64,000 nucleotides of DNA from a virus. The stretch lies in the IMG/VR virus record IMGVR_UViG_3300021420_000014. One strand, written 5' to 3'. Made by a program: the position numbers and the translations under genes. Positions 23,823 through 49,979 of this stretch are shown here, piece after piece (within the stretch, counting starts at the first letter, position 1; each line of letters opens with the position of its first letter). Below the pieces are notes generated by a model. That model was not told the origin of the DNA. It saw only the letters and a program-made list of their open reading frames with translations, and did not search any database.

Positions 23823-25010
23823 GTGAAACGATTTCTGCTCACAAGCGGTGCGTTGGTCCTGGCGGCTATTGTGCTCTCGCTTTTGATACCTTCGCCGCGG
23901 CGAATGTCCGCGCAGACCAACGTCACGATTCCACAGAACTTCGCAAACGTGCTGTGCATCGATTCGTCTGGCTCAGGAACGGTGCAAAGCTGTTCGACAA
24001 CGCCGAGTTTCACAGCCGGCGACAATTCCGCGATTCTTTACGAAACGACGACGGCCAATACTGGCGATGTGACCATTGCCGTCAATGGTGGGTCTGCGCA
24101 GCACGTTCGCAAATGGCTTGGCGCATCAGTTTTGGCAGCTGGAGATCTGCCAGCCAACACGCCGATGTGGATCGTGAACGATGGTACGTATTGGGAGTTA
24201 TCAACGATCGGGAATGTTCCGGGTAGTTCTGCTCCTGGGTGGCTTTCATATTACGGTGACGGCTCAGACGGAGCCTTAACCGATAGTTCTAGCGGAAATC
24301 GCTCAGGCATTTTTTACGCCACGACCTATACCTGCTCGGGTACTACGACAGTAACGAGTAATTTGTTGAACTCCTCGTTAATCATTCGCGCTACCGTATC
24401 TATCACTATCGGTGCGGCTTGTTCATTCGTGGCGACCGGAGAAGCTAATGGAGCAAGTGATTCTGGAGGCGCTGGCGGTGGTGGAGGTGGCGGCACTGCT
24501 GCAGGAGGAAATGGATCTTCAAACAAGGGTTTATCGGCGGGAAGTCAAGTTACGATTGTGTTAGGGGGTTCTGGTGGGGGATCGAGTGGTGGAACCGGAG
24601 GCGTTGGAGCTGCTCCGTCTACCAACGTTATTCGATCTCTTTTAGAAGGTGGTATTGCTACTACTGATTACGTTATGGGCGGGGGTGCAATAGGTGGTAC
24701 AGGAGGTAGCAGCGGTGGTGCGGGTGGAAATGGTGGTGGTGTAATGATTTTCGTTGCGCCAAAGATTACTTTGGCATCAGGGGCTTCGTTTACATCGAAT
24801 GGTTCCCCTGGAAGCAATTCTGGAGCGAATACTCAAGGCGCGGGAGGTGGTGGAGGTGGTGGCGTGATTATTATTCGCTCGCCAAACCTCACTGATAGTG
24901 GGGCAACTTTTAGTGTTGCAGGAGGAGCAGCGGGAAGTTGTCTCTCATTCACAACTTGCGGTCCTGGCGGTGCAGGCGGCGCAGGCTGGAGCAAAGAGAT
25001 CACGCAATGA
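23823..25010 (+). CDS. signal-peptide-bearing glycine-rich fibre-like protein
   Basis: hydrophobic N-terminus ...MSA|Q; YGDGSDG; poly-Gly tracts. Confidence 0.75.
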   Translation: MKRFLLTSGALVLAAIVLSLLIPSPRRMSAQTNVTIPQNFANVLCIDSSGSGTVQSCSTTPSFTAGDNSAILYETTTANTGDVTIAVNGGSAQHVRKWLGASVLAAGDLPANTPMWIVNDGTYWELSTIGNVPGSSAPGWLSYYGDGSDGALTDSSSGNRSGIFYATTYTCSGTTTVTSNLLNSSLIIRATVSITIGAACSFVATGEANGASDSGGAGGGGGGGTAAGGNGSSNKGLSAGSQVTIVLGGSGGGSSGGTGGVGAAPSTNVIRSLLEGGIATTDYVMGGGAIGGTGGSSGGAGGNGGGVMIFVAPKITLASGASFTSNGSPGSNSGANTQGAGGGGGGGVIIIRSPNLTDSGATFSVAGGAAGSCLSFTTCGPGGAGGAGWSKEITQ

Positions 25011-28000
25011 AAAAGTTTTTGGGACTTATTGTTGTCTTTTTGGCTACCGTGCCGTTCAGTTTTGCAATGTGTCCTGGCAGTGCTCCTGCGATCACATCTG
25101 GTCCTTCGGCGTCAATTTCTGGACTAGACGCAACGATAAGTTGGAATACGGATTCGCTGTCAACTTCCGAAGGGAGTTACGGTGATCTTGGTTATACAAA
25201 CGATTCGGGTAGCGTGTGGATTGCGCAAGACCAATCTGTAGGGGTTACTAGTCACAGTATTGTATTTCATAACGCGTTATTGACTACTGGCCAAAGTACT
25301 ATCCAATATTGGGTGACTTCGCGGTGTATCGTTGCAGGCACTCCCAGTTGGGCTTTGATCGCGCAGTCAGCGGCTCACACATTTGCTCTGTCCTCTGGTG
25401 GGCCAACCATTACAGCAGGGCAGCTCGTTACGGCGCTTGGTAGTCCTTTGCGGCCGGTGTTTCCCGTTTATGACGGTGTGCACCCAGGTTATCAGGTAAC
25501 GCCTGGGCAAGGCTTCGTAGTTCAATTTAATTCGTTTGGCACAACCCTTCCCAGTAGTGGCTACGTGTTCAGTGATGGTACTGGGACGACCATGAATTAT
25601 GTTTTTTCGGGGACGGCCTTCAACTACATCACAAGCATGAGAGGCTGGTCGTCTGGTGGAGCCATCTTTGATGGCGGAAGTTTACCAACCAGCGCCCTAA
25701 ATGCCCTCAAGCTAGGGGGGCAGTGCAACACCGTAAGTGTGATAGTTGCGTGTGGCAACGTCGATTTTGTTTTGTCTCCCACCACGCCGACAGGCGGAGC
25801 GAACTGTACCAATAATGGCGGAATAGATTTAGGCGGAGGTCGCTGCGCTTACACTTTGGTCATCACAGAAACTTCGGGCGACACGAATTGCATTTATAAC
25901 GGAGGTTCGACTCTTACTTGCAACACCGCAACCGCCAGCGGCTACGTAATCGCGAATAGCACGCCGGCGCTTCCCGTTGGTCCGGGCTGGGCGGGAGAGG
26001 CCGACATCCCTTGTCGAACACGGGCCACGATGTTTACTGATAATTGTCAGTGCCTGATCTCCTCAGGTGATACGAACTGTACAACGGCTGCTCTGTGCCC
26101 AGACATAATGTCGAGTACTTGTTACTATTCTTACGAGAGTCTCATCCACAACAATCCGGCGCAGAAAGACAACACTTGGGCCGAAATTTGGGGTTTATCC
26201 ACCTACCACTTTGCTGTCAGCGGAAATCCCAACTGGTTTTACGAAGCCTGTCATGTAGATCATCTGTTGGCGGCCTACACGGGCCAGAACGCTCAATGGA
26301 ACAACGTCTCGCAATATTGCTTACATACGATGCGAGACATTCAGCAATATCCGCCCACGCTAGAGACTGTCACCTCGACAAATTCCTTTACGGTGACCGG
26401 GAACGGTGCTCCTACCCAAAATGCCGTCGATTCGTGCGCCACAATTTTGACAAATAGTACCGGCACTCAGGTTTGTGCGACGTATACCGTGCCGACTGCA
26501 GCTACTCTCTCTGGTCTAGTGTCAGGTTTGGCGTCTGGGTATCAATACCTTGCTGTTGATACCAATTTTAACAGCTCTGCCTGCCCCCAGCATTGCGGTG
26601 CGGATTGCCAGGTGTTGAGCGCCGTGAGTGGAACGAGCTTCACAACCGAATGTGTTCTCGGCAGCACGCCTGGAACTACCGATACGTGGACTATCGTGCG
26701 CCTGTTGAGCAACCTGACGGCGACAGCCGGCACAACCGGAACTTCGCTTGTGTGTTCGACTTGTGATTTTGCGGGGATGTTTACTATCAGTCCTACTTCG
26801 GGACACGCCGGCACAAGCTACGCCGTAGGCGATGTGGTGACGATCACGGCGCAAGGCGATACCGCGACAGTGTATGTCGTCAACAGTGGTGCGGTTGTTT
26901 CTCTCGTCCCGAACGCGGCACAGGCATACGTCATTGGTTCCGGTTTGGCCACGACGACAGGAGGTTCAGGCAGCGGCTTACAAGTGGACATAAGTCTGGC
27001 ACCGCAAACGGCCTATATCGTAAGCGGCGTGTCGAACGAGTGGGATGGCATAGCTACTTCGCCGGGGGCAAAAGTAAGCAGCGTAAACGTCAGCACTCAC
27101 ACGGTTACGCTATCGAGTTCGATCACCGGATTAGCCAGCAGTTCCGTTTTTCAAATCCGCACTTGGATAGGACCAGGTGGCGGTGCAGCCATTTATAACT
27201 GGCCAATCCAGCTTCAGGATGTGTGGAACAGCCAAGGTGACTACATTTCTCTCGACATGATCAATCTCATGTCGGTCACGGACAACCCCGGAGGTATTCC
27301 GGCGCTTTATGAGAATCAGCGAGAACTGGCTATAGAGATTCGTAGCTGCCAAATTATTTTGGATATTCGCAATACCGCGGCGGGGACGTTAGCTGCTCAG
27401 TTGCCTTCCTCAGTCTGTACAGATCCCGTTCAAATGGCAATGTTGGTCGATGCGGAGTTCTCGCAGATCGACTGGCTTGTAAACAATTCCGGCAATTCCA
27501 ATCCTTCGGCAGTCATCATCGGAGGCAATGGAACTAATAACGATACGTTTCTAAGCGGCGTGCAGATGTACTCGGTTCAAAGGATACTCAACGATCCTTT
27601 GGTTTACTCTGCCACTGATCCGCGAGGGCCGTACTGGATAAAGACTTATGCCGATTATCTCTACGTTAACGGCTACAGTTACGTTAATCCGGCCTGTGGT
27701 GCCTACTTATTTCACGAATGGGCTTACGAATTTGAATCTCCACACATGGGCTTGTGCACGGTATTGGGCGGCTCTCTTCCTATAAATGTTTCAGGGACTC
27801 CCGTACAGAATGTTTGGAGTGAGCAGGCTCTAATCTGGCCTGCTTTTGCATGGTTATGCAATAAAACTGGAGCGGCACTTATCCCCACGACATCGGTCAG
27901 TTATTGCGCGGCCTTCAACGATATGTTCCGGTACGGCACGGTCTACTCTATTCAGGCGATTGACAGTGCGGTGGCGCCGGGACCAAAAACGATAGGACAG

Positions 28001-28108
28001 ATGGGTCTCTGGATGTTCGGAGATCCAGCCAGGCAAGATGCTTTTGATTGGATGACTCAGGCCAGCGTACTTCCCGGTTCTGATGACGGTCCGGTAATCA
28101 CCTTCTAA
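25007..28108 (+). CDS. large Cys-rich signal-peptide-bearing multidomain protein
   Basis: MKKFLGLIVVFLATVPFSFA; FN3-like ATISWNTD; ends DDGPVITF. Confidence 0.75.
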   Translation: MKKFLGLIVVFLATVPFSFAMCPGSAPAITSGPSASISGLDATISWNTDSLSTSEGSYGDLGYTNDSGSVWIAQDQSVGVTSHSIVFHNALLTTGQSTIQYWVTSRCIVAGTPSWALIAQSAAHTFALSSGGPTITAGQLVTALGSPLRPVFPVYDGVHPGYQVTPGQGFVVQFNSFGTTLPSSGYVFSDGTGTTMNYVFSGTAFNYITSMRGWSSGGAIFDGGSLPTSALNALKLGGQCNTVSVIVACGNVDFVLSPTTPTGGANCTNNGGIDLGGGRCAYTLVITETSGDTNCIYNGGSTLTCNTATASGYVIANSTPALPVGPGWAGEADIPCRTRATMFTDNCQCLISSGDTNCTTAALCPDIMSSTCYYSYESLIHNNPAQKDNTWAEIWGLSTYHFAVSGNPNWFYEACHVDHLLAAYTGQNAQWNNVSQYCLHTMRDIQQYPPTLETVTSTNSFTVTGNGAPTQNAVDSCATILTNSTGTQVCATYTVPTAATLSGLVSGLASGYQYLAVDTNFNSSACPQHCGADCQVLSAVSGTSFTTECVLGSTPGTTDTWTIVRLLSNLTATAGTTGTSLVCSTCDFAGMFTISPTSGHAGTSYAVGDVVTITAQGDTATVYVVNSGAVVSLVPNAAQAYVIGSGLATTTGGSGSGLQVDISLAPQTAYIVSGVSNEWDGIATSPGAKVSSVNVSTHTVTLSSSITGLASSSVFQIRTWIGPGGGAAIYNWPIQLQDVWNSQGDYISLDMINLMSVTDNPGGIPALYENQRELAIEIRSCQIILDIRNTAAGTLAAQLPSSVCTDPVQMAMLVDAEFSQIDWLVNNSGNSNPSAVIIGGNGTNNDTFLSGVQMYSVQRILNDPLVYSATDPRGPYWIKTYADYLYVNGYSYVNPACGAYLFHEWAYEFESPHMGLCTVLGGSLPINVSGTPVQNVWSEQALIWPAFAWLCNKTGAALIPTTSVSYCAAFNDMFRYGTVYSIQAIDSAVAPGPKTIGQMGLWMFGDPARQDAFDWMTQASVLPGSDDGPVITF

Positions 28109-28458
28109 TGAGTTTCCTTCTCCAAGACTCCGGCGCTGCTATCTGGCTCGTGGACGTTACAGATCAAGGTTTGTTGAAAGCGACCGCGAGTTCTGGAACA
28201 CCGGTTGTCGTGAATCTGAGTGACGTGAACGGCAATGCCTGGGGTGTGCAGGTTACGACGCAAGGCTATCTTGAAGCGGTCTCGGTTGCGGGCAGTGCTT
28301 TTACTTATCCGATCTCGAAGCCGATGCAAAGCTCTGGCGGCTTCCAGTTCAACCTGAAGATTTTCTTGGATCAGAATAACGTTGGCAACTTGGGCACCGT
28401 GCTCGTGCCAAGCCAGCTTGTGCCGACGCAGTCGATGGACTGTGTAGTTTGGTACTGA
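28108..28458 (+). CDS. small adaptor-like protein with three beta-hairpin modules
   Basis: LxDxxGxxWxVxVxxxGxL repeats. Confidence 0.65.
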   Translation: MSFLLQDSGAAIWLVDVTDQGLLKATASSGTPVVVNLSDVNGNAWGVQVTTQGYLEAVSVAGSAFTYPISKPMQSSGGFQFNLKIFLDQNNVGNLGTVLVPSQLVPTQSMDCVVWY

Positions 28459-28463
28459 CCCCG

Positions 28464-30776
28464 ATGATCAAGAAACTCTGCTACGCACTCGTGATTTCCT
28501 ATATTGCGACGACTGCGGTTGTGTATTTTGGTTCGCACCGGAAAGTTACGTTTGCGCAAGCATTGACCTTCTGCGCCTTGAGCCAGAATTGCACGTGGAC
28601 GGGGAATAACGCGATGTCATCCGTCAACAATATAATTTACGTTGATGGGTGTTCGGGAGGTACGAAGTATCCGTGCACGGCGGCTGGCATAAATTCAGCC
28701 CTTACCGCTTCCGCAAACGGGCAAGAGACATGGGTTTCTACCAATCTATCGACCATAACTTTGACTGATGCGCTCATTACGCTGAACAAGCACAACCGAC
28801 TTTATCTGGCTGGCCAGGGAACCTATGTGGTGGGGACCGCGAGTGCGGCTTACACGACCACGCCAGCGATTACTGTTCCTGACTCCTCGACGGACGTAAC
28901 AGCGGATTCAGCTATATTTTGTCCTGACCATGCGAAGATTCAGCTTGCGGCAGGAGCCAACCGCGACATCATCGCGGATCAGAACTTCTTCTCGCTGACC
29001 GGAACGTCGAACCAATTCGGCACCTTCAAATTCACGACTCAGGGCTGCACGCTCGATGGGAATAAGACGAATGAGGCTGCACTGGTAACGACAGGCACTT
29101 GCATTCCCTTAAACGTGACGCGCTCCAGTGGCGGTCTTGCCACGATCAACTGCTCGAATACTCCGAGCCCAGCATTCCTGGCTGGCTACGCCGTGGACGT
29201 AGCAGGCGTGGCTACTGACGGCTTTACCTTCAATGGACATTTTATTGTTCAGAGCGCTACCGCGACGCAGATTACTTTCAACGATAATCAGTGCATCGTT
29301 CAAACCTCGTGTCATACGACCGCGCTCACGACTCAGCCCGTGGCGATAGCGATTACCGGATGTACTGCATCCGGTTTCACGGCGACGTGCAACACGGGAT
29401 CGGCGCATGGATTCGTGCCCCAGCAAAACGTCACCATGTCCGGGCTTACGCCAGCCGGTTACAATGGCACGTTTTTACTGGTAAGCGCGAGTGGCACCTC
29501 GTTTACTTACGTTCCACTGACGAGCGGCTTAGGGGCATCCGGCACAGGCACGGCTACTCCTGTAATAACCGCGATTGGTTATGGCGGCGCGGGCGGGATC
29601 AAGATTTACGGTCGGCGTTCAATCTTCCGCGATACGGTTGTCGCTAACAACACGTGCGACGGGCGATGGGATGAAGGTGTAAACCCGCCAGCCTTCGGCG
29701 ACGATACAACGCAGCTAATTTCCACCTATACCGACATTCAAGATATGAACTCCGGCTGCGATGGATGGGTGTTTTGGGGACCGCAGAGTTCAAATTTCGT
29801 AAATGTAGATGATTTCAATCACGGCCATTGGGGAATAGAAGCCTTCCAGACCTTGTGGGGCAAGGGAGGAACTTCGTACCTAAATGGTTCGGGCGGAATA
29901 CATGATTTTGCTGCCGATGTGCAGTTAACGAATAGGCAGGATGCTTCTGCCGTGGGATGGGGCATACTCACCGAACCTACAGCCTCTCAGTTTGTTATGT
30001 CTGGATCTTCACTATCCGCCCCGATAGGAATTGAGTTCCGCAATCCTGGTAACACCTTTCAAGGGCTGATTCTAAACAGTGCTCTGGGAATGAAGTTTAA
30101 CGGCGGATCAGTCAACGCCCAAATAAATATCTTCACCGTCACGACTTGGTTTGATTGTACCAACGAAAATGCTCTTGTTATTTTGGACGTCAGCTACGGG
30201 AGCACGGTCGGCACGATGAAGGGCACGAACTGTTGGACCGGCCAGGAAATGCTGCGGTTGCCTTTGACCGCTGGCAACACTACTGGCACGCAAATTCCTG
30301 GTAGCTTAAGCGGGTTTTTCATTGCAGGCTGGAATCCTCAGTTTCCGGCGACTAACAATACATTGGTTGCAAGCCCGAATGCTGGAACTGTTAGATCGTC
30401 TCTTCATATTAGCGACCAAGGAAGTGCCTGTACGAATGGCGAACTGGCTCTGAGCGCTGGCTGGGCCGTCACTGGATCGTCTAGCGTTACTGCCGCTGCA
30501 GGCAATGGCCAGACTTGCTCGTGGACGATCACTACCGGCACGACCACCAGTGCGAATCCCACCGTTACCGATACGCTGACTAATGCCCTGCCGACGGCAA
30601 CTACGGTATGCTGGATGATCGTGAACGGCGGTTCGCATACGCCGGTTGTGGGCGCGGGAACAGAAGACGCATTTCGGCAGACCACGTTGTCGGCTACTGC
30701 CCCAGTTTTTACATTCGAGGAAACGCCAACACCTGCTGGAACGACGTATTTCGTAACTCGTGGTTGCGGTCCTTAG
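28464..30776 (+). CDS. signal-peptide-bearing tailspike-like protein (beta-helix with inserted modules)
   Basis: ...TFA|Q; AGINSAL...GQGTYVV; TLDGNK; H-G-F...GYNGTF modules. Confidence 0.7.
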   Translation: MIKKLCYALVISYIATTAVVYFGSHRKVTFAQALTFCALSQNCTWTGNNAMSSVNNIIYVDGCSGGTKYPCTAAGINSALTASANGQETWVSTNLSTITLTDALITLNKHNRLYLAGQGTYVVGTASAAYTTTPAITVPDSSTDVTADSAIFCPDHAKIQLAAGANRDIIADQNFFSLTGTSNQFGTFKFTTQGCTLDGNKTNEAALVTTGTCIPLNVTRSSGGLATINCSNTPSPAFLAGYAVDVAGVATDGFTFNGHFIVQSATATQITFNDNQCIVQTSCHTTALTTQPVAIAITGCTASGFTATCNTGSAHGFVPQQNVTMSGLTPAGYNGTFLLVSASGTSFTYVPLTSGLGASGTGTATPVITAIGYGGAGGIKIYGRRSIFRDTVVANNTCDGRWDEGVNPPAFGDDTTQLISTYTDIQDMNSGCDGWVFWGPQSSNFVNVDDFNHGHWGIEAFQTLWGKGGTSYLNGSGGIHDFAADVQLTNRQDASAVGWGILTEPTASQFVMSGSSLSAPIGIEFRNPGNTFQGLILNSALGMKFNGGSVNAQINIFTVTTWFDCTNENALVILDVSYGSTVGTMKGTNCWTGQEMLRLPLTAGNTTGTQIPGSLSGFFIAGWNPQFPATNNTLVASPNAGTVRSSLHISDQGSACTNGELALSAGWAVTGSSSVTAAAGNGQTCSWTITTGTTTSANPTVTDTLTNALPTATTVCWMIVNGGSHTPVVGAGTEDAFRQTTLSATAPVFTFEETPTPAGTTYFVTRGCGP

Positions 30777-31193
30777 ATGGCATTCAGCGTAGACGCATGG
30801 GGTCAGCCACCAACACCGCCGCAGACTAACTGGGCGGTCCTGCGCGCGCAGTATGCCATTCTCATAGCGGTCTCAGGGCAAGCCGCATTCGACCCGAATC
30901 CACATGGAACGTATATCCTCGGAGTGAACGACAGTGGTGACCTGACCATGACCCCGGCCACGAAGAGTCCGATCTTCCCGATCCTGAATGATTTGAGTGG
31001 CAATTCGTGGCAGCTGGGATCCTCGCTAAGCGGCGGGATCACGAATCAGCCAACTACCAATGGCGGCTATCCACTCTCGACAACGCTGCGAAGTCCGTCG
31101 GGCTTTCTCTATAACCTTTTCGTCCTGACTTCGGGGATGCTGCAGACGGTCAGGATTCCCGTTTTGCAGATGCGAGACGCGATCGTGTACTGA
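30777..31193 (+). CDS. adaptor-like protein: one scaffold repeat plus three beta-hairpin modules
   Basis: N-terminal DAWGQPPTPPQTNW matches 32623; LRSPSG.LY.L.V. Confidence 0.65.
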   Translation: MAFSVDAWGQPPTPPQTNWAVLRAQYAILIAVSGQAAFDPNPHGTYILGVNDSGDLTMTPATKSPIFPILNDLSGNSWQLGSSLSGGITNQPTTNGGYPLSTTLRSPSGFLYNLFVLTSGMLQTVRIPVLQMRDAIVY

Positions 31194-31903
31194 TGATTAA
31201 ACAACTCGCAATGTCATTGCTGTTTTGTCTAGCCTTCATTCCAGAAGCTCACGCCTGGACCAAAATTCAGGTGGCGCACATTGCTGCTAGCTGCTCGGTT
31301 AGCCCTTGTGTCGTTTCTCTTGCAGCGACCGGAGCAAACCATCTTCTTGTGGTTGGATTCGAAGATAATTCTTTCAGTGATGTAATGGGTGCGCCACCTG
31401 CTAGTGCTTGTGCCATTCCTTGGGTACATGCCCCTAATGCCCCAGCTATTTACGTACCAGCGGGAGACGTAAACGACGCTTATTATTGCTTGCAATCGAA
31501 CGGCGGCATTACCTCGTTTAGTCAGCCAGTCACGACTTTTACGGGCGCAGCCGACGTGATTGTGTGGGAAGCGGCATCAGGACTCGCGGTCGTTGCGCTT
31601 GATGCTGGCGGCAAGCTTCAGGATACGACTTGCACGTCGTGCGCGGGAGTTCCGCTAACCCTTTCAGGCAACAGTGATTTCATCATCGCCTTGGCTGGAG
31701 GGACGGTAGTCGTCTCCGGGCTCACAGGTACGGGTTTCACCTATGAAGGCACGACTGGATTCGGTGATGGGTTCGCTACTGGCCTGACCACGGGATCACT
31801 GACTGCACCGACAACGTGGACCGGATCGAGCGGCCTACTCAGTGTTTATGCATTGGCAATTCAAGAAGTCGGGCCAAGTGATGGTGGCGTAATCACTTTC
31901 TAG
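31193..31903 (+). CDS. signal-peptide-bearing protein
   Basis: MIKQLAMSLLFCLAFIPEAHA|W; ends SDGGVITF. Confidence 0.7.
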   Translation: MIKQLAMSLLFCLAFIPEAHAWTKIQVAHIAASCSVSPCVVSLAATGANHLLVVGFEDNSFSDVMGAPPASACAIPWVHAPNAPAIYVPAGDVNDAYYCLQSNGGITSFSQPVTTFTGAADVIVWEAASGLAVVALDAGGKLQDTTCTSCAGVPLTLSGNSDFIIALAGGTVVVSGLTGTGFTYEGTTGFGDGFATGLTTGSLTAPTTWTGSSGLLSVYALAIQEVGPSDGGVITF

Positions 31904-31937
31904 CGCGATGCGTGAGGCAATTGTCTATTGAACGAGA

Positions 31938-32621: not shown

Positions 32622-32622
32622 C

Positions 32623-39401: not shown

Positions 39402-39734
39402 ATGGTTCGTGTAGTTGATTTCAAGATCGATGAATTCGTTAGTGTAAGGCTTGCGGCAATGAGTTGGGCCGAGGCTGAGAAGTTTCAGGAAGAGACAGCG
39501 CAACTGCTCGCTAACAAAGAAGCAACAAAATCGGAAGATTGGATGGGTCTTACGCAACGCACCGTCATTGAATCGATCAAAAAGGCAACAACGATTAGGC
39601 CCATAGATGGTCAGCCAACAAATGGAGATTTCACCTTAGAGGTTTTGAAGAGGGATTTTGATTTGCCAGCCATCAATGCGATGTACTTTAAGGTGCTCGA
39701 AATCTCCGGTCTCAAGACAGAGGTTAAATCTTAA
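39402..39734 (+). CDS. tail assembly chaperone, stand-alone G-like paralog
   Basis: aligns with the N-half of 38711; SD GAGGTG. Confidence 0.7.
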   Translation: MVRVVDFKIDEFVSVRLAAMSWAEAEKFQEETAQLLANKEATKSEDWMGLTQRTVIESIKKATTIRPIDGQPTNGDFTLEVLKRDFDLPAINAMYFKVLEISGLKTEVKS

Positions 39735-42088
39735 TGGCAGACGATAACCTTCGAATTTCTGCATCTATGGATGTGGGCCCGATCGTCAGCGGTACCAATG
39801 CTGCTGGCGCGGCCGTACAAAGTCTGGCTGACAAGTTCAAACAAGTTGCTGCCGATGCCCAAAGGGCCGGAGATGCTGTCTTAGCTCAAGCGGCTCGCTT
39901 TCAAGCTCAAGGATTGACGGCAGAACAAGCTGCTCAAGCCCTAATGCATTTTGGCAGCAGCGCAACGGAAGCAGCTACAGCAGCAGCGGCGGCAGCAAGT
40001 GCCGCAGGCGTGGAAGCCGCAGCTCTCACAACGGTCGCCGAGGCCGCAACCGGGGCTGGCGTGAGCATGCAAGCGAGTGCCATGGCCGGTGCTAAGGTTA
40101 GAGAAGAATTAGGCGCACTCACCGGAAGCATCGGTGGCATTGAATACGGCTTGGCGCGCGTCGCTTCCCGCATACCAAGTTTGATTCCGATCATCAGCGA
40201 TGTTTTCCCTCTCTTCCTAGCTATCGGTTTCGTGGAAATGCTCGGCGCGATGATTAGCAAGATAGGCGAAGTTGTGTCTGCGTATGAAGGGTGGGACGCG
40301 GTAACTCAAAGACTTTATGCCGATGCCCTCAAGGCAAACGCAGAGGAGATGAAGTACACCACCGATCTAAAGATCCAGCAGATGGAATTGAACGAGATTG
40401 GCCTCAAAGGATCCGAGCTCGAAGCAGTATCGGCAAAAGATGCTCACGCTGCAGCACTATTGAAGACCGCAGATGCCGCGGCAGAACTTGCCGTACAACG
40501 AGATCTTTTGGCCCAGCGTGACAAGACCGCAGCGCAATCCATGCGGGAACAAGGAGTACCAGAAACTGCGATTCGCCCATGGATGGAACAGCAAGCTCTC
40601 GTCAGAGAAGGCAGCAAAGAATGGGACGATCTTACCAAGCGTGCGGCTGAAGCCGGAGAAAAAGCAAGAGACTATGCAAAGGAAGGACAGAACCTAGAGC
40701 TCGTCAAGCTTCCAACCGACAAGCTAAAGGAAACGGCGGATCTAGCCAAAGAGGTGGCAGAGCAAGAGAAAAAATTGCGAGAGATCTGGGATCAGACGGG
40801 CAAGGACGCTGTGAAGGCCTACGATTTGCAGATCGCCGCCACCAAAAATAGGACTAAGGCGGAAGAAGAGATGGGCTTGGCTGTTTCCTCATCAAGCGAT
40901 AGAGAGGTGCGAGCTGCATCAGAAGCCGCAGTAGAAAAAGTCAAGTTTGAAAACGATTATCTGGCCGCTCTTCGGAGCGGTGAAGAACAAGCCGCACTGA
41001 TATCGATAGGAGCTCAGGAGATTGCCGCAAAGCAGCATGCTGAGATGCAGAAGGAAAAGCTTCGCGTATCTCTAGAATCGGCTCCTCACAAATCTAAAGA
41101 CCTAGGAAAGCTACAAACCGATGAGCTAGAAACGCAGAAGCGGCTAGAACAGGAAAAGGCCGACGCTGTTGTCAAAAGCCTAGAGGCACAGCGCGACGCC
41201 ATGGGTTCGCATGCTGCGGAGCTGGGGTCTATTAGCGGTATAGGCGTGGGGACAGCACCGCGGGCAGTGCCGGAAAATGCCGCCGACGCAGCACTGCTAG
41301 CGAAATGGCAAGAGTTACAAAACAAAATCGTCGATGCCAAGAAACAAGCTGCTGCAAAGATGCAAGAGATCGACGGCCAGATCAAGCTCTCCAATCAGCA
41401 AACGGCTAATCAGATCCAGCAATACTGGGCGTCCACCATGATGCGGTTCATGCAGCCGTTCGAGACTGCCTTCGACGGTGTGATCAAAGGAACTGAGTCC
41501 GTAAAGTTCGCCTTCATTAAGTTGGGCGGCGAACTAGTCATGAACATGGTTCATTCCCTAGAACAAATGCTTATGAAATGGATTACCACGCATGTTGCCA
41601 TGACGATTGTGCATGCTCTGATGGGCCAGCAGCAGGTGATTCAGGATACTACTACAGCTGCGGAAAAGCAGGCAATTCAGGCGGCATCGGCCACTGCGAC
41701 CATTACGCAATATGCTGGCGTGGCTGCCGCCGAAGCTTATGCCGCCGAAGCTGCGGTTCCTGTAGTGGGTCCGGGCTTGGCGGCAGGCGCGGCGGCCACA
41801 GCCTTCTCTGAAGTTATGGCCTTCAACGCATTCGCTGCCGCGCAGAAAGGCGCGATCGTGCCACGGAACATGCCCCTCAATGTGCACGAAGGGGAAATGG
41901 TGCTCCCTGCTGGGATTTCTAGACCATTACAGCAAGCGTTAAGTCCTGGCGGCGGTGGGATAGGCGCTAATCCGACGAATGTTCATATCCACGCAATGGA
42001 CAGTGAAAGTATGCGTAGTTTTCTATATCGCAACCAACGCACTTTTGTCTCTTTAGCGCGCGGAGCCATCCGAAACGGGAGATTCTAG
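39734..42088 (+). CDS. tape measure protein
   Basis: 784 aa, Ala-rich and helical; C-terminal VHEGEMVLPA. Confidence 0.9.
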   Translation: MADDNLRISASMDVGPIVSGTNAAGAAVQSLADKFKQVAADAQRAGDAVLAQAARFQAQGLTAEQAAQALMHFGSSATEAATAAAAAASAAGVEAAALTTVAEAATGAGVSMQASAMAGAKVREELGALTGSIGGIEYGLARVASRIPSLIPIISDVFPLFLAIGFVEMLGAMISKIGEVVSAYEGWDAVTQRLYADALKANAEEMKYTTDLKIQQMELNEIGLKGSELEAVSAKDAHAAALLKTADAAAELAVQRDLLAQRDKTAAQSMREQGVPETAIRPWMEQQALVREGSKEWDDLTKRAAEAGEKARDYAKEGQNLELVKLPTDKLKETADLAKEVAEQEKKLREIWDQTGKDAVKAYDLQIAATKNRTKAEEEMGLAVSSSSDREVRAASEAAVEKVKFENDYLAALRSGEEQAALISIGAQEIAAKQHAEMQKEKLRVSLESAPHKSKDLGKLQTDELETQKRLEQEKADAVVKSLEAQRDAMGSHAAELGSISGIGVGTAPRAVPENAADAALLAKWQELQNKIVDAKKQAAAKMQEIDGQIKLSNQQTANQIQQYWASTMMRFMQPFETAFDGVIKGTESVKFAFIKLGGELVMNMVHSLEQMLMKWITTHVAMTIVHALMGQQQVIQDTTTAAEKQAIQAASATATITQYAGVAAAEAYAAEAAVPVVGPGLAAGAAATAFSEVMAFNAFAAAQKGAIVPRNMPLNVHEGEMVLPAGISRPLQQALSPGGGGIGANPTNVHIHAMDSESMRSFLYRNQRTFVSLARGAIRNGRF

Positions 42089-43042: not shown

Positions 43043-43053
43043 CGCATTCTAAC

Positions 43054-43251: not shown

Positions 43252-43289
43252 CATGATCCGTGGCGCGATAAGGAATGGGAGGTTCTGAC

Positions 43290-43658
43290 GTGAAGAGAAT
43301 CGCACTTTGCCTGCTGTGTGTGCTCGCGTTCTTCATTGGACGAGGTTATTCACAGACCGTTTACACTACCGTGACAATCGCCAATGGTACTGCAGCTCTT
43401 GGAACCGGTGCCATTAACTCCGGAACGTGCGCCAGTGTGGTCACCATCTCAGCACCGGGCACACTGAGTACCGACAACATCATTGCTGATTTCAATACCG
43501 ATCCGACCGGAGTTACCGGCTATAGCCCCACATCAGGAGGTATTCTAACGATCATCAAGTATCCAGGTCTGAATACTGTCTCGTTCAAGGTATGTAACAG
43601 CACCACTTTGCCAATTACACCGGGGCCCATAACCTTGAACTGGAGGGTGCCACGTTGA
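43290..43658 (+). CDS. signal-peptide-bearing small beta-sandwich protein
   Basis: MKRIALCLLCVLAFFIGRGYS|Q. Confidence 0.7.
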   Translation: MKRIALCLLCVLAFFIGRGYSQTVYTTVTIANGTAALGTGAINSGTCASVVTISAPGTLSTDNIIADFNTDPTGVTGYSPTSGGILTIIKYPGLNTVSFKVCNSTTLPITPGPITLNWRVPR

Positions 43659-45886
43659 AGCTCTTCGTTATAGCTGCGGCCATCTTGCTTTTAGCCATTC
43701 CGGCGCACGCGCAACTCTGGTCTGGAGTCATCTCCGCAGGCCGCGCTATAGATTGGTCATCTGCTGGCGTCGTCGGTGGAATTCCAGACGCAGCTTGGAC
43801 TCAATGCGGTTCAACCATCGCGGCCTACGGGACGGTGGGCACTCCTGGTGCTCCAACTACGATCAACAGCGCCATCGCAGCTTGTGGCGTAAACCAATAC
43901 GTGCTGCTAGGGATTGGCACCTTCGTTCTAAATGCCAAGATAGATTTTGCTTCAAAGTCGAATGTTGTCCTGCGCGGTGCCGGAGCAGACCAGACAATTA
44001 TTAAGTTTACAGCAGGACCGGGGACCGGATGTTTTGGGCTCGGCGGTGCTGTTTGTATTACAGGCCAAGATAATTTTGACATTCGGGATAACGTTCAAAA
44101 CTCTGCGAACTGGACGGCTGGATACGCCCAAGGTGCAACATCGATCACTTTGAGCAATACCACAAACTTGCAAATCGGTGCTCTTTTAGTGCTTTGGCAA
44201 GCAGATCAGGCAACCGATCCGGGCACGATTTGGAATTGTCAGAATACTGGAGCGTTAGGAGATTGTTCGGAGCAAGGAGGCCAAAACGGTCCTTCTGGCA
44301 ACAGTCAAACGCAAACTGTCACTGTAACTTCTATCCCCGGAGGAGGCGCAGGAGGCGCAGTTGGCATTTCTCCTGGTCTGTATTCGCCGATCTGGTCGGG
44401 AACTTTCTCGCCTGCGGCAGGCTGGAATACCCATCTGCCAGTTCAGAACGATGGCGTTGAAAACCTTACGCTTGATGGTTCTCTCACGACTGATAGCCCA
44501 GGTAGTGCGGGGTCATTCATCTTTTTTGGTTGGGCTAAAAACTGCTGGGTAACAGGCGTTCGCACGATCAACAATGGCTCACCGCCGGACAGAAATAATA
44601 TCTGGAGCTATTTGTCGTCGCATTTGACGATCCAGAATAACTATTCTTACGGGTCGAACGGTTCTAATCTGAGTTATGGGCACGAAGTATCTTTCATGTC
44701 TGACGACATTCTGGACGCAAACAATATATTTCAACACGTTGCCGGTGCTGAAATAATGAATGGCGGAGCGGGAAACGTCTTTGCGTACAACTTCTCGGTG
44801 GACAATTACTACACTGCGGGCGGCACGGCCCCCAATTTCGAGCAATCAGATTCCTACCCTTCTCACCAAGACGGTTCCTATTTCAATCTGTTTGAAGGCA
44901 ATGTTGGAGCAAAAATTGCTTCCGACGATATTCACGGCACGAGTTGGATGGTAACTGCATTTCGGAACCGCTGGACCGGGAGGGACGGTCCATTCAAGGT
45001 CGCGAGCACGATGGTCGCGGACATTGAAGCCTATTCACGCTATTACAACCTGATTGGTAATGTGATGGGTGAGTCCGGCTACCATACGACGTACAAAGAC
45101 ATCCCCTCTTCGAATGTCGATAATACTGGCTGCACGACTACAGGGAATGTCTCGATCTATGCACTAGGATGGGCGGGCGGACAGGCTTGCAACTACAGCA
45201 TTGTTTACAACGACACCAATGTCGCTCCTTTCTCTTATTTTTGGGGCAATTACGATGTCGTTACCGCAGCAGTCAGGTGGTGCGGGAATTCTGGCGATCC
45301 AGGCTGGTCGACGACGTGTAGCAGCACTTCGGAAGTCCCGACTGGTTTGGGCTCTTATGCTCAGACCGTTCCGTCCAGTACTGCGCTTCCTACATCGTTT
45401 TATTATTCGTCCAAGCCCTCGTGGTACAACGACGGAATCGGACACTCCGCACTTCACTATCCTGCGATTGGCCCCGATCTTTCTGGTGGCCCTGATCCGG
45501 GCGGCTTCGGCTATGCGATCCCCGCGCAGTTGTGTTTCAACAATACAAGCTACGATACAAATTATTCCGTTTCGGATTCCATAACCTCAATCAGTGAGGC
45601 GGGAACCACGGCGACCGCTACGCTTAGTTCAAGTGCGCCGGCGAGCTTCACGCAATATCAATCGTTTTGGATCACGGGCTCTTCGGTCGCTGGCTACAAC
45701 CGTCTCTGGCAGATAGCGACGGTAGCAGGAACCACGCTGACGTTCACTGCGACTTCCGGCCTAGGGTCGGCCACAGGAGGAAGCGCCGCGGTAAATGCAG
45801 TTCATTCTTTCAACGCCAACACCTGCTATAGCGGTGCTCTACCTGCACCTCCTACGCAAGTATCGGCAATCACGATTGGACCTTAA
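43655..45886 (+). CDS. signal-peptide-bearing pectate-lyase-like beta-helix protein
   Basis: ...AHA|Q; INSAIAAC...L..GTF; VVLRGAG.DQT; GVENLTLDG. Confidence 0.8.
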   Translation: MKLFVIAAAILLLAIPAHAQLWSGVISAGRAIDWSSAGVVGGIPDAAWTQCGSTIAAYGTVGTPGAPTTINSAIAACGVNQYVLLGIGTFVLNAKIDFASKSNVVLRGAGADQTIIKFTAGPGTGCFGLGGAVCITGQDNFDIRDNVQNSANWTAGYAQGATSITLSNTTNLQIGALLVLWQADQATDPGTIWNCQNTGALGDCSEQGGQNGPSGNSQTQTVTVTSIPGGGAGGAVGISPGLYSPIWSGTFSPAAGWNTHLPVQNDGVENLTLDGSLTTDSPGSAGSFIFFGWAKNCWVTGVRTINNGSPPDRNNIWSYLSSHLTIQNNYSYGSNGSNLSYGHEVSFMSDDILDANNIFQHVAGAEIMNGGAGNVFAYNFSVDNYYTAGGTAPNFEQSDSYPSHQDGSYFNLFEGNVGAKIASDDIHGTSWMVTAFRNRWTGRDGPFKVASTMVADIEAYSRYYNLIGNVMGESGYHTTYKDIPSSNVDNTGCTTTGNVSIYALGWAGGQACNYSIVYNDTNVAPFSYFWGNYDVVTAAVRWCGNSGDPGWSTTCSSTSEVPTGLGSYAQTVPSSTALPTSFYYSSKPSWYNDGIGHSALHYPAIGPDLSGGPDPGGFGYAIPAQLCFNNTSYDTNYSVSDSITSISEAGTTATATLSSSAPASFTQYQSFWITGSSVAGYNRLWQIATVAGTTLTFTATSGLGSATGGSAAVNAVHSFNANTCYSGALPAPPTQVSAITIGP

Positions 45887-45907
45887 TGCACGCTGATGGA
45901 CTAACTA

Positions 45908-46906
45908 ATGTTCAATCTCAGAGATTCATCGGGCTACCTATGGTCAGTAAACGTTCTCGACAACGGCGATTTGACACAAACCAAGGGCTCTCTAGGCTCT
46001 ACGCCAAACGTCTACTTGAACGATCCAACAAATTCCGCATCGTTTCAGATCGGCATCACAATAGTCGGAGGGTTGACCCAGACTTCGGTAACTTTCAATG
46101 CTTTGTATCCAGAATCAATTACTCTGATTTCTCCATCCGGCCTGACGTATGGTTTGTTCATTACGCTGGCTGGCGATTTATTTACAGTTGCTTTCGTGGG
46201 GTTTCCTGTGGCCTTTCCCGTTTATCCGACAATTCGCGGTAAAGCTTGGCCGGTGACTCGTACACAGATGTGGGAGAACCAGGTTCAACGGATGAGCTCT
46301 GGAGCTGAAGTGAGAATTGCTTACTGGGCAAATCCGCTGAAGAGCTGGGAGATTCGCTACGGCGGCGGGGCTAACGACGCTGGCTATATTAAAGATAATC
46401 CAGGCGACATCATGATTGGCGCGACTGAAACGGATATGCGTGTGATCGAAGGTTTCTATAATCAGATGCAAGGCCGCTTTGGTGTTTTCCTTTTTGATGA
46501 TGTGACTCCAGGTTATGCGCAAGGCCAAGGTCCATGGGATTCGGTCGGGATCGTTGGCATGGGTGGCAATCCACCTGTTCAGCAATCGATAGGTACTGGC
46601 GATGGTTCGACGACGACATTTCAGTTGGTCCGTACGATAGGCGGATTCACCGAGGCGATTCAAACTCCATTCACGACGCCGGCACCCAATATTTATTTGA
46701 ATGCTGTCCTGCAGGTTTCTGGCTACTCAATCAATCAAATCGGCCAGTTAATTTTTACCAGCCCTCCTGGCAGTGGTGTGGCGATAACTGGAACTTATGG
46801 CTATTACTGGCCGTGCCGATTTTCAGATGATTCGATTCCATTTGACAATAATTTGCTTTATCTCTGGGCAGCTAAGTCAATCAAAATCGAACAATGCCGT
46901 CTCTAA
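45908..46906 (+). CDS. DUF2460-family distal tail protein with three N-terminal beta-hairpin modules
   Basis: SSG.E.R...W; GTGDGSTTTFQL.R; YWPCRF.DD. Confidence 0.85.
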   Translation: MFNLRDSSGYLWSVNVLDNGDLTQTKGSLGSTPNVYLNDPTNSASFQIGITIVGGLTQTSVTFNALYPESITLISPSGLTYGLFITLAGDLFTVAFVGFPVAFPVYPTIRGKAWPVTRTQMWENQVQRMSSGAEVRIAYWANPLKSWEIRYGGGANDAGYIKDNPGDIMIGATETDMRVIEGFYNQMQGRFGVFLFDDVTPGYAQGQGPWDSVGIVGMGGNPPVQQSIGTGDGSTTTFQLVRTIGGFTEAIQTPFTTPAPNIYLNAVLQVSGYSINQIGQLIFTSPPGSGVAITGTYGYYWPCRFSDDSIPFDNNLLYLWAAKSIKIEQCRL

Positions 46907-46975
46907 AATATGTTTCCACGTCTTCGGGGTGTTCACGCGTTCTGGCCGCTTCCAATTTTACGTCGGGGGTGGCCA

Positions 46976-47869
46976 ATTAAACCAGCGTCCTCGGCTTTCA
47001 AGAACTTGCTTTTTCAAGACTACAGTTACTGGGTCGGCAATCTGTTCACGATTACGCTCTTCGATGGCACGATCTTCACGTGGACAGACTTCGAATATGA
47101 TGTCGTACTCTCCGGCACGCGCTTTTCTTCCCGCGGCCCCTACCCGTTATGGTCTGGCTTCACACAAAAGATCGGCGTAGAAGTAGATGAAGGTAAGCTC
47201 CAGCTTTGGGCACTTCTTACTAACCTCGTTGAGAGCCAGGCCGTCCTCCAAGCGATCGGCACCGGCTTGTTTGATAACGCGGACATCGTGATTCAACGCG
47301 TGATGATGGGAAGCACTGGAGCTCAACCGGCACGGCCGATCAACTTCGATACTTCAGCGGGCGCAGTTACGCTCTTCCATGGCAATGTGTCAGACATCAC
47401 AGAGGTTGATCGAAGTCACGCTGAAATAGACATCAAAAGCAAGAAGGAATTGCTCAATCGACCGTTCCCGGCTCACGTCTATCAGCCGGCGTGCCGTTGG
47501 GATCTTTATGGAGCAGGTTGTACGCTGAACATTAACAATTTCTACATCAATGGCAGCATAGTCGGAAGTGGCTCTCTTAATCTGCTTTTCAATACAACGA
47601 TGACTAATATCGACCACTACTTTGATGAAGGCTTAATCACTTTTACCAGCGGAGCGAATGTTGGTGTTACCAGGACCGTGCGCCTATATCTGAATGCCAG
47701 CGGCCAGACTCTTCTTTTTGTGCCGCTACCTGCGGCTCCCGCTAATGGAGACCAGTTCAAAATGGCACCTGGGTGCGATAAGCAATTGGCTACCTGCCGC
47801 GATAAATTTAACAACTTAATTAACCTGGGTTCGATGCCCTTCGTACCGGTCGCAGAAAGTGCTATCTAG
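46976..47869 (+). CDS. DUF2163-family baseplate hub protein (start ATT 46976 or ATG 46910)
   Basis: LFTITL.DG; CRWDLY..GC; PGCDK....C..KFNN..N..G.PFVP. Confidence 0.85.
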   Translation: MKPASSAFKNLLFQDYSYWVGNLFTITLFDGTIFTWTDFEYDVVLSGTRFSSRGPYPLWSGFTQKIGVEVDEGKLQLWALLTNLVESQAVLQAIGTGLFDNADIVIQRVMMGSTGAQPARPINFDTSAGAVTLFHGNVSDITEVDRSHAEIDIKSKKELLNRPFPAHVYQPACRWDLYGAGCTLNINNFYINGSIVGSGSLNLLFNTTMTNIDHYFDEGLITFTSGANVGVTRTVRLYLNASGQTLLFVPLPAAPANGDQFKMAPGCDKQLATCRDKFNNLINLGSMPFVPVAESAI

Positions 47870-48857
47870 GTTATACTTATGGTATGCATACAAAGGACGC
47901 TGGTTCATATACGCACTCTCCATCAACAAACGTGTCATTTACATTGGTCGGACGAAACATCCGTCTCTGCGACTGGCACAGCATCGCAAGCGCTTCGGCA
48001 TCAAGGTCCAAATGCGTATTTTGGAACAAGGAATGCGCGGAGGAGCAAAGGAAGCCGAACTGAAATGGTTGAAACGCTACCTCAAAAAGACTCGACTCAA
48101 GAACCTTATGATAACTGCTGGCGGCGCGTTTGTGTCGTCACCGGCAACGTTACGCAAATTACGGCGTGCTACGAGGCAGCTGTGGAAAGACATGCAATAT
48201 CGGGCAAAACAAAACGCAGCCCTTCTTGCTGCCGTTCGAGCACCGGAATATCGGAAGCGGCGCAGCAAAATGTCGAAGGCGATGTGGCGAAACCCTCGTT
48301 ATGCAGCAAAGATGCGACCATATATCGTTGCCGCAGGCAAACGACCGCGCAGCAAGAAGTACCGCCAGTACATGAGCGAAACGCTCAAAGCTCGCGGCAA
48401 GCCAAAGTGGAGCAAGGCTGGCGAGAAGCGCGTGCGGGCTACGCAGTTCCAGAAAGGCCGCAAGAATACACCAGAAGAATCACGCAAGCAGTCAGCAGCA
48501 TTGCGGCGTCGTTGGAAGAAGGTTCCGAAAGCCAAGCGATCCCAAATGCTCACGGAGTTAAACCTAAAAGTTTGGCGGAAGCGCAGCAAGAGCAAGCGAT
48601 GTCAGATCGGCCGCAATATCAGCAAAGCACTTCGCGCTTTGCCGGAACGAACGAAAAAGCGCATAGGACGTGTTGGATACAAAGCGGCCCTGAAAAAAGA
48701 TCCAAACTTCCACAAAAAAGCACGTGCAGGAGTCAAAGCCTTTTGGGCATCAATGACCCCGAGCGCTCGCAGTGCGCTCATGCTGAAACGAATGGCGAAA
48801 GCTGTGAGGAAGCGGCATGAGCGAAAAACTAAAAGAGAAGTTCCAAAGCCTACCTGA
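47859..48857 (+). mobile_element. GIY-YIG endonuclease with a basic repeat DNA-binding tail
   Basis: FIYAL....VIYIGRT....RL.QH; E..W; K/R-rich repeats. Confidence 0.75.
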
Positions 48858-49350
48858 TTTTTATCATCCACCATTTATTCCTGGCGAAGAATCCACTAAA
48901 CGTGCTGCTGTCATTGCCGAAGCCAGGACTTGGCTTTCGACACCGTTCCATCCAAACGCGTGCGTGAAGGGCCATGGCGTAGACTGTGGCCGCTTTCTGA
49001 TAGCCGTATATTCATCTGTCGGTCTTATGCCAGAATACGAACCTGGATATTGGAGCCCGCAATTCCATCTTCACTCTGGCGAGCCTAGCTATATGGCCGA
49101 AATGCTGAAGTTTGCGCATGAGATTCAAGTGCCGCCGGAACCAGCCGACATCGTGATGATTCATCTCGGACGTCAATACGCTCATAGTGGCATCGTCATA
49201 GAGTGGCCGAATCAAGTGATTCATGCGCCAGCCGCAGATATGCAAGGGGTAGTGCAAATTAGCGATGCCAGCAAAGACGCCTTATTTCTGCATGGCGGTA
49301 TGAGATTCCCTCCAAAATTCTTCTCGCCATTCAACCGGGAGACGCAATGA
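48817..49350 (+). CDS. NlpC/P60 tail-associated peptidase
   Basis: EARTWL.TPFH...GVDC; HSGI; IHA. Confidence 0.9.
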   Translation: MSEKLKEKFQSLPDFYHPPFIPGEESTKRAAVIAEARTWLSTPFHPNACVKGHGVDCGRFLIAVYSSVGLMPEYEPGYWSPQFHLHSGEPSYMAEMLKFAHEIQVPPEPADIVMIHLGRQYAHSGIVIEWPNQVIHAPAADMQGVVQISDASKDALFLHGGMRFPPKFFSPFNRETQ

Positions 49351-49979
49351 AAAAACTAGCACCAATTATTATAGTGTGCGTCGGATTGCTTGCTGGTTTA
49401 TTCGTCGGAATACCTAGGTTAAGAGTAGCGGCACAGAACACATTTGCGGCGCTTAATCTGGCGCAGAATTTTACTGCATTGCAACAATTCAGTGCTGGCA
49501 TCAGCGCAGACGGCACACATGTGGAGACAATTCCAGCCGTTACTGGCGGAACTCTAGCCGTGCTTCCTACATCATCTTTGGTTCCTGGTCTAACAGCTCC
49601 AAACATCGTAGCGGATGTTAACCTCACCGCTCAAACAGGCAATATCGGTACGCTCCTTTATGCTGTGCCAGTTGGCGGAACGGGGCAATATTACGTAACC
49701 TGTTACGTGGTACTCACACAAGCTGCAACTAGCTCATCCACTATGCCTGCCTGTAGTCTATCGTGGAATGAAGGGGATACTAATGTCTCTGCAAACCTAA
49801 CGTTTTTTTCAGGGGGTAGTGCCTCTAATACCGTAGGTGCTAACGAGACAGCATTTCCGAATGTCATCAGTGCGCGTGCAAGCACAAACATATTTTACAG
49901 CACGACAGGATATGGAAGTGTTGGTGCGACTCCGATGCAATATGCGATCCACCTTCGGCTTATCTATCTCGGTACGTGA
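49347..49979 (+). CDS. signal-peptide-bearing fibre-like protein
   Basis: hydrophobic N-terminus ...VAA|Q; NFTA.Q.F repeat. Confidence 0.7.
   Translation: MKKLAPIIIVCVGLLAGLFVGIPRLRVAAQNTFAALNLAQNFTALQQFSAGISADGTHVETIPAVTGGTLAVLPTSSLVPGLTAPNIVADVNLTAQTGNIGTLLYAVPVGGTGQYYVTCYVVLTQAATSSSTMPACSLSWNEGDTNVSANLTFFSGGSASNTVGANETAFPNVISARASTNIFYSTTGYGSVGATPMQYAIHLRLIYLGT

Follow-up and report, generated by a model that had tools for sequence, protein, structure and literature searches.

The DNA examined here is a window of 64 kb (64,000 nucleotides) from the IMG/VR virus record IMGVR_UViG_3300021420_000014, a complete phage genome of 164,879 bp with direct terminal repeats, and it carries among its virion genes seven open reading frames (ORFs) whose products begin with signal-peptide-like leaders. 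These lie at 23823..25010, 25007..28108, 28464..30776, 31193..31903, 43290..43658, 43655..45886 and 49347..49979, all on the forward (+) strand, encode proteins of 395, 1033, 770, 236, 122, 743 and 210 residues, respectively, and are referred to below by their start positions. An earlier note on this sequence had proposed the seven as a candidate new system of exported, cysteine-rich virion appendages that mature in the periplasm and dock on the particle at lysis.

Each of the seven proteins displays the anatomy of a substrate of Sec and signal peptidase I, taken here as a basic n-region, an uncharged h-region of about 10-20 residues and small residues at positions -3 and -1. One to three Lys or Arg residues precede 12-20 uncharged hydrophobic residues and a small-x-small site in every case, which confirms the basic-hydrophobic leaders described in the earlier note. 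The start codons are GTG in 23823 and 43290, TTG in 43655 and ATG in 25007, 28464, 31193 and 49347, and a GGAG/GAGG Shine-Dalgarno-like motif is found 6-13 nt upstream of five of the seven. Wrong start codons were considered as a source of artefactual leaders and rejected, as these motifs and the homologues both back the starts. The five predicted mature N-terminal Gln residues were confirmed (MSA/Q, TFA/Q, GYS/Q, AHA/Q and VAA/Q, with the slash marking the predicted cut), the remaining two junctions being SFA/M, which would expose Met-Cys, and AHA/W. None of the seven carries a lipobox, and no leaderless paralogue of any of them was found within the window.

The mature proteins are rich in cysteine, again in agreement with the earlier description, with a median content of 1.98% compared to 0.61% in the leaderless structural proteins of the same operon, an enrichment of approximately threefold (p=2e-4, one-sided Mann-Whitney test, 7 versus 22 proteins). 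The number of mature Cys residues is even in six of the seven, and many of them occur in short-range pairs. When run genome-wide, a home-made leader heuristic picks out five of these genes; its other calls are one lipobox protein, two leader proteins close to the lysis genes and, on the other arm of the genome, a few more. Those on the other arm include products of the reverse strand (-) at 107116-108231, 111090-111431 and 111435-111941 in window-based coordinates; one leader-bearing protein of this arm has a lipobox, and one shows a Pro-Arg-x-Arg ... Ala/Gln-Thr junction with a mature start like that of 23823.

The phage is long-tailed, with a tape measure and an RcGTA-type tail tip. A prohead protease/scaffold-like gene (5772) and the major capsid gene (7841) represent the head, followed by a glycosyltransferase/methyltransferase block and then the neck genes. 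The first cluster of leader genes (23823-31903) is located between these neck genes and the tail genes, among which are a major-tail-like gene (36868) and the tape measure gene (39734..42088, +), recognized by PHROG tape-measure matches and encoding a protein with neither a leader nor any Cys. The tail-tip module (45908..54080, +) is leaderless and comprises the distal tail protein (Dit, DUF2460; start at 45908), which bears an N-terminal hairpin module, a hub (phiJL001 Gp84_N/BR0599; start at 46910), an NlpC/P60-like protein (48817-49350) and a gpJ-like protein (Phage-tail_3; 50565-54080) with an intein-like insert. Genes 43290 and 43655 lie between the tape measure and Dit genes, while 49347 lies between the NlpC/P60-like and gpJ-like genes and shares an ATGA overlap with the stop of the former.

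The leader genes overlap or abut leaderless structural neighbours, with spacings of -4 to +5 nt. Neither promoters nor terminators of their own were found, the counts of such sites being no higher than in shuffled sequence, and their GC content is that of the rest of the genome. The possibility that they are recently and independently acquired cassettes ("morons") was rejected on these three grounds. Translational coupling ties the leader genes into the structural operon.

Homologues and folds of the leader proteins

The 743-residue product of 43655 (13 Cys) has more than 1250 homologues, nearly all of which combine a variable leader with a conserved mature start. Among the 120 homologues listed, the N-terminal 20-30 residues vary while the leader pattern is kept, and the sequences become alignable exactly from the predicted mature start. 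Species-representative genomes hold 205 related loci, the best 80 of which are nearly all from Acidobacteriota (Terriglobia, Acidobacteriaceae, Sulfotelmatobacter and others). Leader-bearing copies with 58-71% identity to 43655 reside in chromosomal exopolysaccharide (EPS) loci of Acidobacteriota, which are not prophages, in the company of Wzy, Wzx, glycosyltransferases and sugar-nucleotide enzymes. Similarity to these enzymes extends over the full length, with the leader in the same position and invariant Cys at positions 51, 195, 627 and 724 of alignment A2, although 43655 itself is sited between the tape measure and Dit genes rather than in a Wzx/Wzy cluster. The chromosomal copies show that the phage gene derives, as a copy, from an exported enzyme of host EPS loci, and they fix the host phylum as Acidobacteriota (Terriglobia-type), the phage being one of soil Acidobacteriota.

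The structural model of 43655 is a right-handed β-helix with a predicted template-modelling score (pTM) of 0.77 and a mean predicted local distance difference test score (pLDDT) of only 68. Foldseek searches of the PDB returned capsule depolymerases and tailspikes of phages as the best matches, namely K1 lyase (7w1c), phi297 gp61 (4ru5), LKA1 gp49 (4ru4), K64-1 S2-4 (9k4a) and AP22 gp54, the four entries named by code having E values of about 1e-10 with template-modelling (TM) scores of only about 0.3; secreted matrix lyases such as RbmB appear lower in the list. The modelled protein thus looks like a polysaccharide depolymerase of the β-helix type. A link to 31193 (AHA/W; 6 mature Cys) is provided by the metagenomic protein P0005 (956 residues, from a 4.3-kb contig), whose first 225 residues are 53% identical to 31193 and in which a leader and the 31193-type domain are fused before a 43655-type β-helix. 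Because P0005 unites both domain types, 31193 and 43655 probably work on the same target. The small 43290 protein (GYS/Q; 2 mature Cys) is encoded immediately upstream of 43655, its stop overlapping the 43655 start.

Downstream, 49347 (VAA/Q) ends in a tip domain spanning residues ~85-210, modelled with pLDDT >90 as a jelly-roll that resembles C1q/TNF-like domains, carbohydrate-binding modules (CBM) and viral P-domain (protrusion) proteins. This domain was found in 1037 clusters of proteins ranging from 134 to 1937 residues, and is always C-terminal. Among the best 150 members of the family, 90 have a leader and 60 have none, and the leader-bearing members display three times the whole-protein Cys density of the leaderless ones (p=4e-7). 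Exactly two Cys occur in the last 130 residues in 64 of the 90 proteins with a leader, whereas 28 of the 60 without one have none there; a Cys pair that is gained and lost together with the leader would be expected of proteins exported to an oxidising compartment. At the junction, 73 of the 90 have Gln after a small residue, and the leaderless members start with a motif that directly trails the leader in leader-bearing members and in gp13 of the phage Tunturi_1, described below. The genomic context of two leaderless members, P0186 and P0196, is confined to contigs of 1-2 kb.

The first cluster shows how bodies and leaders are exchanged. In 23823 (6 Cys), a leader of about 30 residues (MSA/Q) is followed by a conserved mature N-module and a Gly-rich C-terminal domain. 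Both leader and N-module are retained in its homologues P0126 and P0127, while in P0124, P0129, P0137 and others a different leader is set directly before the Gly-rich domain, which in the closer relatives always stands behind a leader; the P0124 gene is found just after the head-closure gene on the siphovirus-like contig L095. The 1033-residue 25007 protein (30 Cys) has a single homologue among 5.8 billion proteins, the 910-residue P0122 from phage-like contig L005, which differs in its leader but is 44-55% identical from the first mature Cys onward and keeps most of the Cys residues. No usable match to 25007 was returned by an Atlas search. The mature portion of 28464 (20 Cys) begins with a conserved N-module of ~50 residues, and only the leader and these ~50 residues are held in common with L011, a related phage contig of 124 kb, while L010 encodes a body 89% identical to that of 28464 behind a different leader and N-module. 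The probable identity of 28464 as a pectate-lyase-type β-helix is a lead only, drawn from a language-model search of the Atlas in which phage clusters of pectate lyases or K1 lyases matched with a features score of 0.89 and a TM score of 0.50.

The description of all seven as fibre- or spike-like holds for four of them (43655, 49347, 23823 and, as a lead, 28464), with 25007, 31193 and 43290 having no assignable fold. Scans of these proteins and of the small proteins encoded beside them against Pfam and PHROGs yielded no usable match, no close relatives of 25007, 23823, 31193 or 43290 were found in IMG/VR, and a tblastn search with 23823, 28464, 43655, 49347, P0162 and P0196 against 50,697 GenBank phage records produced no match.

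These families bear directly on whether the leaders are genuine. The leader varies while the mature start is conserved in the families of 43655, 25007/P0122, 23823 and 49347, and the kin of 43655 in host EPS loci carry leaders too, both of which argue that they are. A leader that is not used for export, with assembly in the cytoplasm and the hydrophobic N-terminus either retained or trimmed by a phage protease, would preserve the classical cytoplasmic route and is compatible with the tandem mass spectrometry (MS/MS) annotation of phage phi18:3 discussed below, which does not show cleavage. It would leave unexplained, however, the enrichment in Cys and its co-occurrence in pairs with leaders, the +1 Gln and the leader-bearing host homologues, and a non-conserved leader is unlike an assembly interface; this explanation is very unlikely. 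Export with oxidative folding outside the cytoplasm is, on these sequence patterns, very probable, and this portion of the earlier proposal, export and periplasmic maturation, is well supported by the variable leaders preceding conserved mature starts, the host homologues and the coupling of leaders to Cys pairs.

Possible docking on particles or action as free enzymes

Runs of leader-bearing, Cys-rich proteins also occur on the phage-like contigs L001, L005, L006, L008, L010, L094 and L095, after the head-closure gene in L095 and at the tail-fibre end in L001, L008 and L094, where they precede the lysis genes wherever lysis genes are visible. In the cultured Tunturiibacter podovirus Tunturi_1 (PP887698), five of the six proteins gp12-gp17 have leaders, namely gp12, gp13, gp14 (annotated "tail spike"), gp16 and gp17 (annotated "virion structural protein", with a Beta_helix match). 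Four of these five are proteins of 675-1190 residues with 10-32 Cys, mostly predicted to be cut before Gln, and the cassette is flanked by a tail gene on one side and the lysis genes on the other, in the slot of the tailspike. Tunturi_1 gp17 shares 41% identity with a leader protein of L001, and the same contig carries a copy of 43655 at 75% identity. The leader proteins from the related contigs and Tunturi_1 gave weak matches only when compared with PHROG and Pfam, and the main text of the Tunturi paper (PMC11924767) contains none of the terms "signal peptide", "mass spectrometry" or "SDS-PAGE". Judged by these gene arrangements, the leader-cassette pattern is widespread in phages of Acidobacteriota. 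Since it also appears in one cultured phage with a host of the Bacteroidota, the Cellulophaga phage phi18:3, the term new system, which the earlier note proposed, is too strong for this window alone. Phage phi18:3 encodes three proteins with classic leaders and Gln at +1 (gp085-087) just upstream of its lysis genes, which are described in its GenBank record as virion, structural and tail proteins "based on experimental MS/MS proteomics analysis"; no other experimental connection between leader proteins and particles was found.

The Gln at +1 that dominates in the phage leader proteins recalls the Q-rule, described as specific to Bacteroidetes (PMC5837995, PMC10653852). The only related work found in print consists of these Q-rule papers and of a passing remark on Porphyromonas phages, which are reported to make Q-rule leader proteins whose function is unknown but which are suspected of changing the envelope of the host (PMC10367356). 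In a rough and noisy count of leader-like N-termini over flanking Acidobacteriota genes (loci L014-L093), Gln was the commonest +1 residue, at 12 of 46. The leader sequences as a whole hint that the Q-rule also operates in Acidobacteriota. A plant-type glutaminyl cyclase (PF05096) was found in one of five Acidobacteriota genomes, M28-type cyclases not being searched for.

The reading favoured here, at a probability of roughly 0.4, is that at least the fibre-type members mature in the periplasm and then dock on the particle; it extrapolates from sequence patterns further than export, cleavage or disulfide formation do. The Acidobacteriota host would export the seven proteins through Sec, signal peptidase I would cut the leaders, mostly before Gln, and disulfide-assisted folding would follow in the periplasm. 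The products would be aimed at the polysaccharide surface of the host, two of them looking like β-helix depolymerases and one like a jelly-roll tip, with the rest fibre-like or without a known fold. Synthesized late, in step with tail and neck proteins, the exported set would wait in the periplasm while particles lacking tail fibres are built in the cytoplasm. Once a holin opens the inner membrane, the two pools would mix and the fibre-type members would bind particles as neck or tail-tip appendages, although 43655, as an enzyme acquired from a host EPS locus, may work in free form instead. The endolysin (60118-60636), of the M15/VanY type according to Peptidase_M15_4/VanY matches just under the Pfam cut-offs, is leaderless, so that the holin must be of a kind that makes large holes. 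Tailspikes of the P22 type add to finished heads in vitro, and this behaviour together with the leaderless endolysin makes docking biochemically plausible.

The chief competitor to docking is that the proteins fold in the periplasm and never join the particle, acting as free accessory proteins that cut or bind host exopolysaccharide, either nascent or around the cell; they might stop capsule synthesis, loosen the matrix, allow progeny to escape from debris or strip neighbouring cells after lysis. Such a role is quite possible, yet somewhat doubtful. It agrees with 43655 being almost a copy of enzymes from host EPS loci (up to 71% identity), with no domain added, with the resemblance of its fold to secreted matrix lyases, with the envelope-altering role supposed for the Porphyromonas phage proteins (PMC10367356), with the presence of other, leaderless tip proteins in this phage and with export itself, which would keep the leader proteins apart from particles. 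A single host, however, presents few EPS types, and several different large enzymes and fibres are better suited to virion host-range equipment, particularly as the 49347 family includes long fibrous proteins. Docking is favoured further by the coupling of the leader genes to stoichiometric structural genes, including those of the tail tip, and by the swapping of bodies behind conserved leaders or N-modules, as seen in receptor-binding proteins. The lack of a leaderless paralogue in the window points in the same direction, as do the Tunturi_1 cassette in the tailspike slot and the virion MS/MS annotation of the phi18:3 leader proteins.

Display on the host envelope, whether in the periplasm, in the inner membrane or on the outer surface, is another conceivable end point of export. 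The proteins would then be exclusion factors that mask or destroy the receptor of the phage, as do the T5 Llp and Cor lipoproteins, the llp gene adjoining the receptor-binding gene of T5. The small leader genes 43290 and 49347 similarly adjoin tip genes, the 49347 tip domain could bind a receptor, and three of the leaders are possible signal anchors. Exclusion factors are usually early or lysogenic genes, whereas the genes considered here belong to a late operon, and their products are for the most part enzymes or fibres of very large size. The lipobox of such lipoproteins is absent from all seven, and no leaderless paralogue of the same specificity was found in the window, so that this role is unlikely.

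Several observations also weigh against docking. The 43655 protein has no N-terminal particle-binding domain, being co-linear with the host enzymes from its first mature residue, and the leaderless gpJ-like protein and the protein encoded from 54082 could serve alone as receptor binders. The leaders of 23823, 28464 and 49347 have long, atypical c-regions holding Arg, Lys or His and could be uncleaved signal anchors, in which case the C-terminal bodies would, by the predicted topology, still be outside the cytoplasm. No phage-encoded DsbA, Thioredoxin_4, signal peptidase S26 or glutaminyl cyclase was found. In Tunturi_4, a cultured siphovirus of Acidobacteriota, the proteins of the structural module are all leaderless. 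The MS/MS annotation of phi18:3 is silent on leader cleavage and could reflect co-purifying contaminants. Addition of periplasmic parts to particles assembled in the cytoplasm is not known from any tailed phage.

Taken jointly, these data are compatible, if tentatively, with a two-compartment assembly line in tailed phages of Acidobacteriota and, as phi18:3 suggests, of Bacteroidota. Heads and tails would be made in the cytoplasm, whereas the recognition set of spikes, fibres and tip lectins would be exported through Sec, trimmed and furnished with an N-terminal pyroglutamate and disulfides in the periplasm, and would not join the particles before the inner membrane is breached by the holin. 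If the proteins are virion parts, they would constitute a large exception to the rule of cytoplasmic completion in abundant soil and marine phage groups. This would explain disulfides and blocked N-termini in fibres, which should aid survival in acid, protease-rich soil, and would change both the prediction of receptor-binding proteins, from which leader ORFs are now often dismissed as non-structural, and the expression of such proteins for use. If they are free enzymes, phages would carry stable secreted depolymerases copied from host EPS loci, with a bearing on soil carbon and biofilm turnover.

Neighbouring genes of the operon

Small leaderless proteins are interspersed with the leader genes of the first cluster. 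A protein of 116 residues (28108..28458, +), whose start overlaps the 25007 stop, consists of a three-hairpin module, and one of 138 residues (30777..31193, +) contains an N-terminal motif in common with the protein encoded from 32623, followed by the same module. This module of ~60-90 residues is formed by three similar β-hairpin-like repeats and was recognized by BLASTP in five proteins (alignment A1), at 28108-28458, 30912-31190, 45908-46207, 53877-54077 and 54082-54381. It thereby makes up two small stand-alone proteins, the N-terminal parts of Dit and of the 54082 protein, and the C-terminal part of the gpJ-like protein; it may serve in docking or as a kind of lectin.

Beyond 31193, two leaderless proteins are encoded at 31938..35913 (+), one of 227 residues and the other a Pro/Trp-rich repeat protein of 1096 residues with 2 Cys (32623-35913). 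Homologues of both come after a leader gene in the related large phage L011, where the counterpart of the repeat protein (L011:4741-8733) has 1331 residues; the two repeat proteins contain only 2-4 Cys. The repeat protein may be a scaffold or fibre for the leader cassette. The 25007 and 31193 proteins end in a near-identical C-terminal tag of 10 residues ending in VITF (28079-28108 and 31874-31903; GPVITF in 25007), and a tag of this type also ends an ORF of L011 (L011:57-545). In P0122, the tag is replaced, past a shared Pro-Gly, by a basic tail resembling the ends of two L001 leader proteins. These tags do not track the type of small protein encoded downstream.

The tail operon is interrupted by three reverse-strand ORFs with similar N-termini (37626-38120, 42276-42983 and 49993-50490), and a forward ORF (47859-48857) sits between the hub and NlpC/P60-like genes. 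All four look like homing endonuclease genes, the HNH assignment being read from N-terminal sequence alone. The insert of the gpJ-like protein (residues ~318-592) is 32% identical to a stretch of cluster-C-type mycobacteriophage terminase genes, which fits a putative intein in a structural tail protein. Besides the endolysin, the probable lysis region (56756-60636) encodes a small membrane protein, a protein with a lipobox (57019), one with a leader or anchor (57622), a papain-like protein of the Peptidase_C1 type (58452-59285) and a further leader protein (59323).

Comparison with known systems

The leader feature is a variation on two known themes, the spikes and fibres of phages and the proteins that phages export, and would become a new category only if virion proteomics shows mature, cleaved and disulfide-bonded forms on particles. 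Phage proteins known to use Sec include the T5 Llp and Cor lipoproteins, signal-anchor-release (SAR) and signal-peptide endolysins, spanins, and pIII and pVIII of the Ff phages; of these, the Ff coat proteins are exported virion parts, but belong to filamentous phages whose assembly takes place at the membrane, and the others are small proteins of exclusion or lysis. No spike or fibre protein of tailed phages is known among them. The Llp/Cor exclusion lipoproteins are further distinguished by their small size and lipobox Cys at +1.

The capsule depolymerases (K1 lyase, 7w1c; LKA1 gp49, 4ru4; phi297 gp61, 4ru5; K64-1 S2-4, 9k4a) share with 43655 a β-helix body and a place in the structural operon, but are leaderless, contain few Cys and possess an N-terminal particle-binding domain. 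The β-helix enzymes of Acidobacteriota EPS loci match 43655 in full-length sequence (58-71% identity), leader position and conserved Cys, and differ in being chromosomal and adjacent to glycosyltransferase, flippase and polymerase genes. The Bacteroidetes Q-rule is paralleled by the +1 Gln in five of the seven proteins and by phage genes of unknown function that use a host export rule, although the host in the present case is an acidobacterium by the EPS-locus comparison, and the Porphyromonas phage paper draws no link between its leader genes and fibres or spikes (PMC10367356).

Two further parallels concern gene arrangement. Phage phi18:3 (Pachyviridae) similarly encodes consecutive late leader proteins, three in number, with +1 Gln and upstream of the lysis genes, but it is a podovirus of a Bacteroidota host, its gp085-087 contain only 0-3 Cys and have no detected sequence similarity to the seven proteins, and cleavage of their leaders is unreported. 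Tunturi_1 infects a host of the same phylum as the present phage and encodes large, Cys-rich leader proteins between a tail gene and the lysis cassette, although it is a short-tailed phage and gathers its leader genes in a single cassette.

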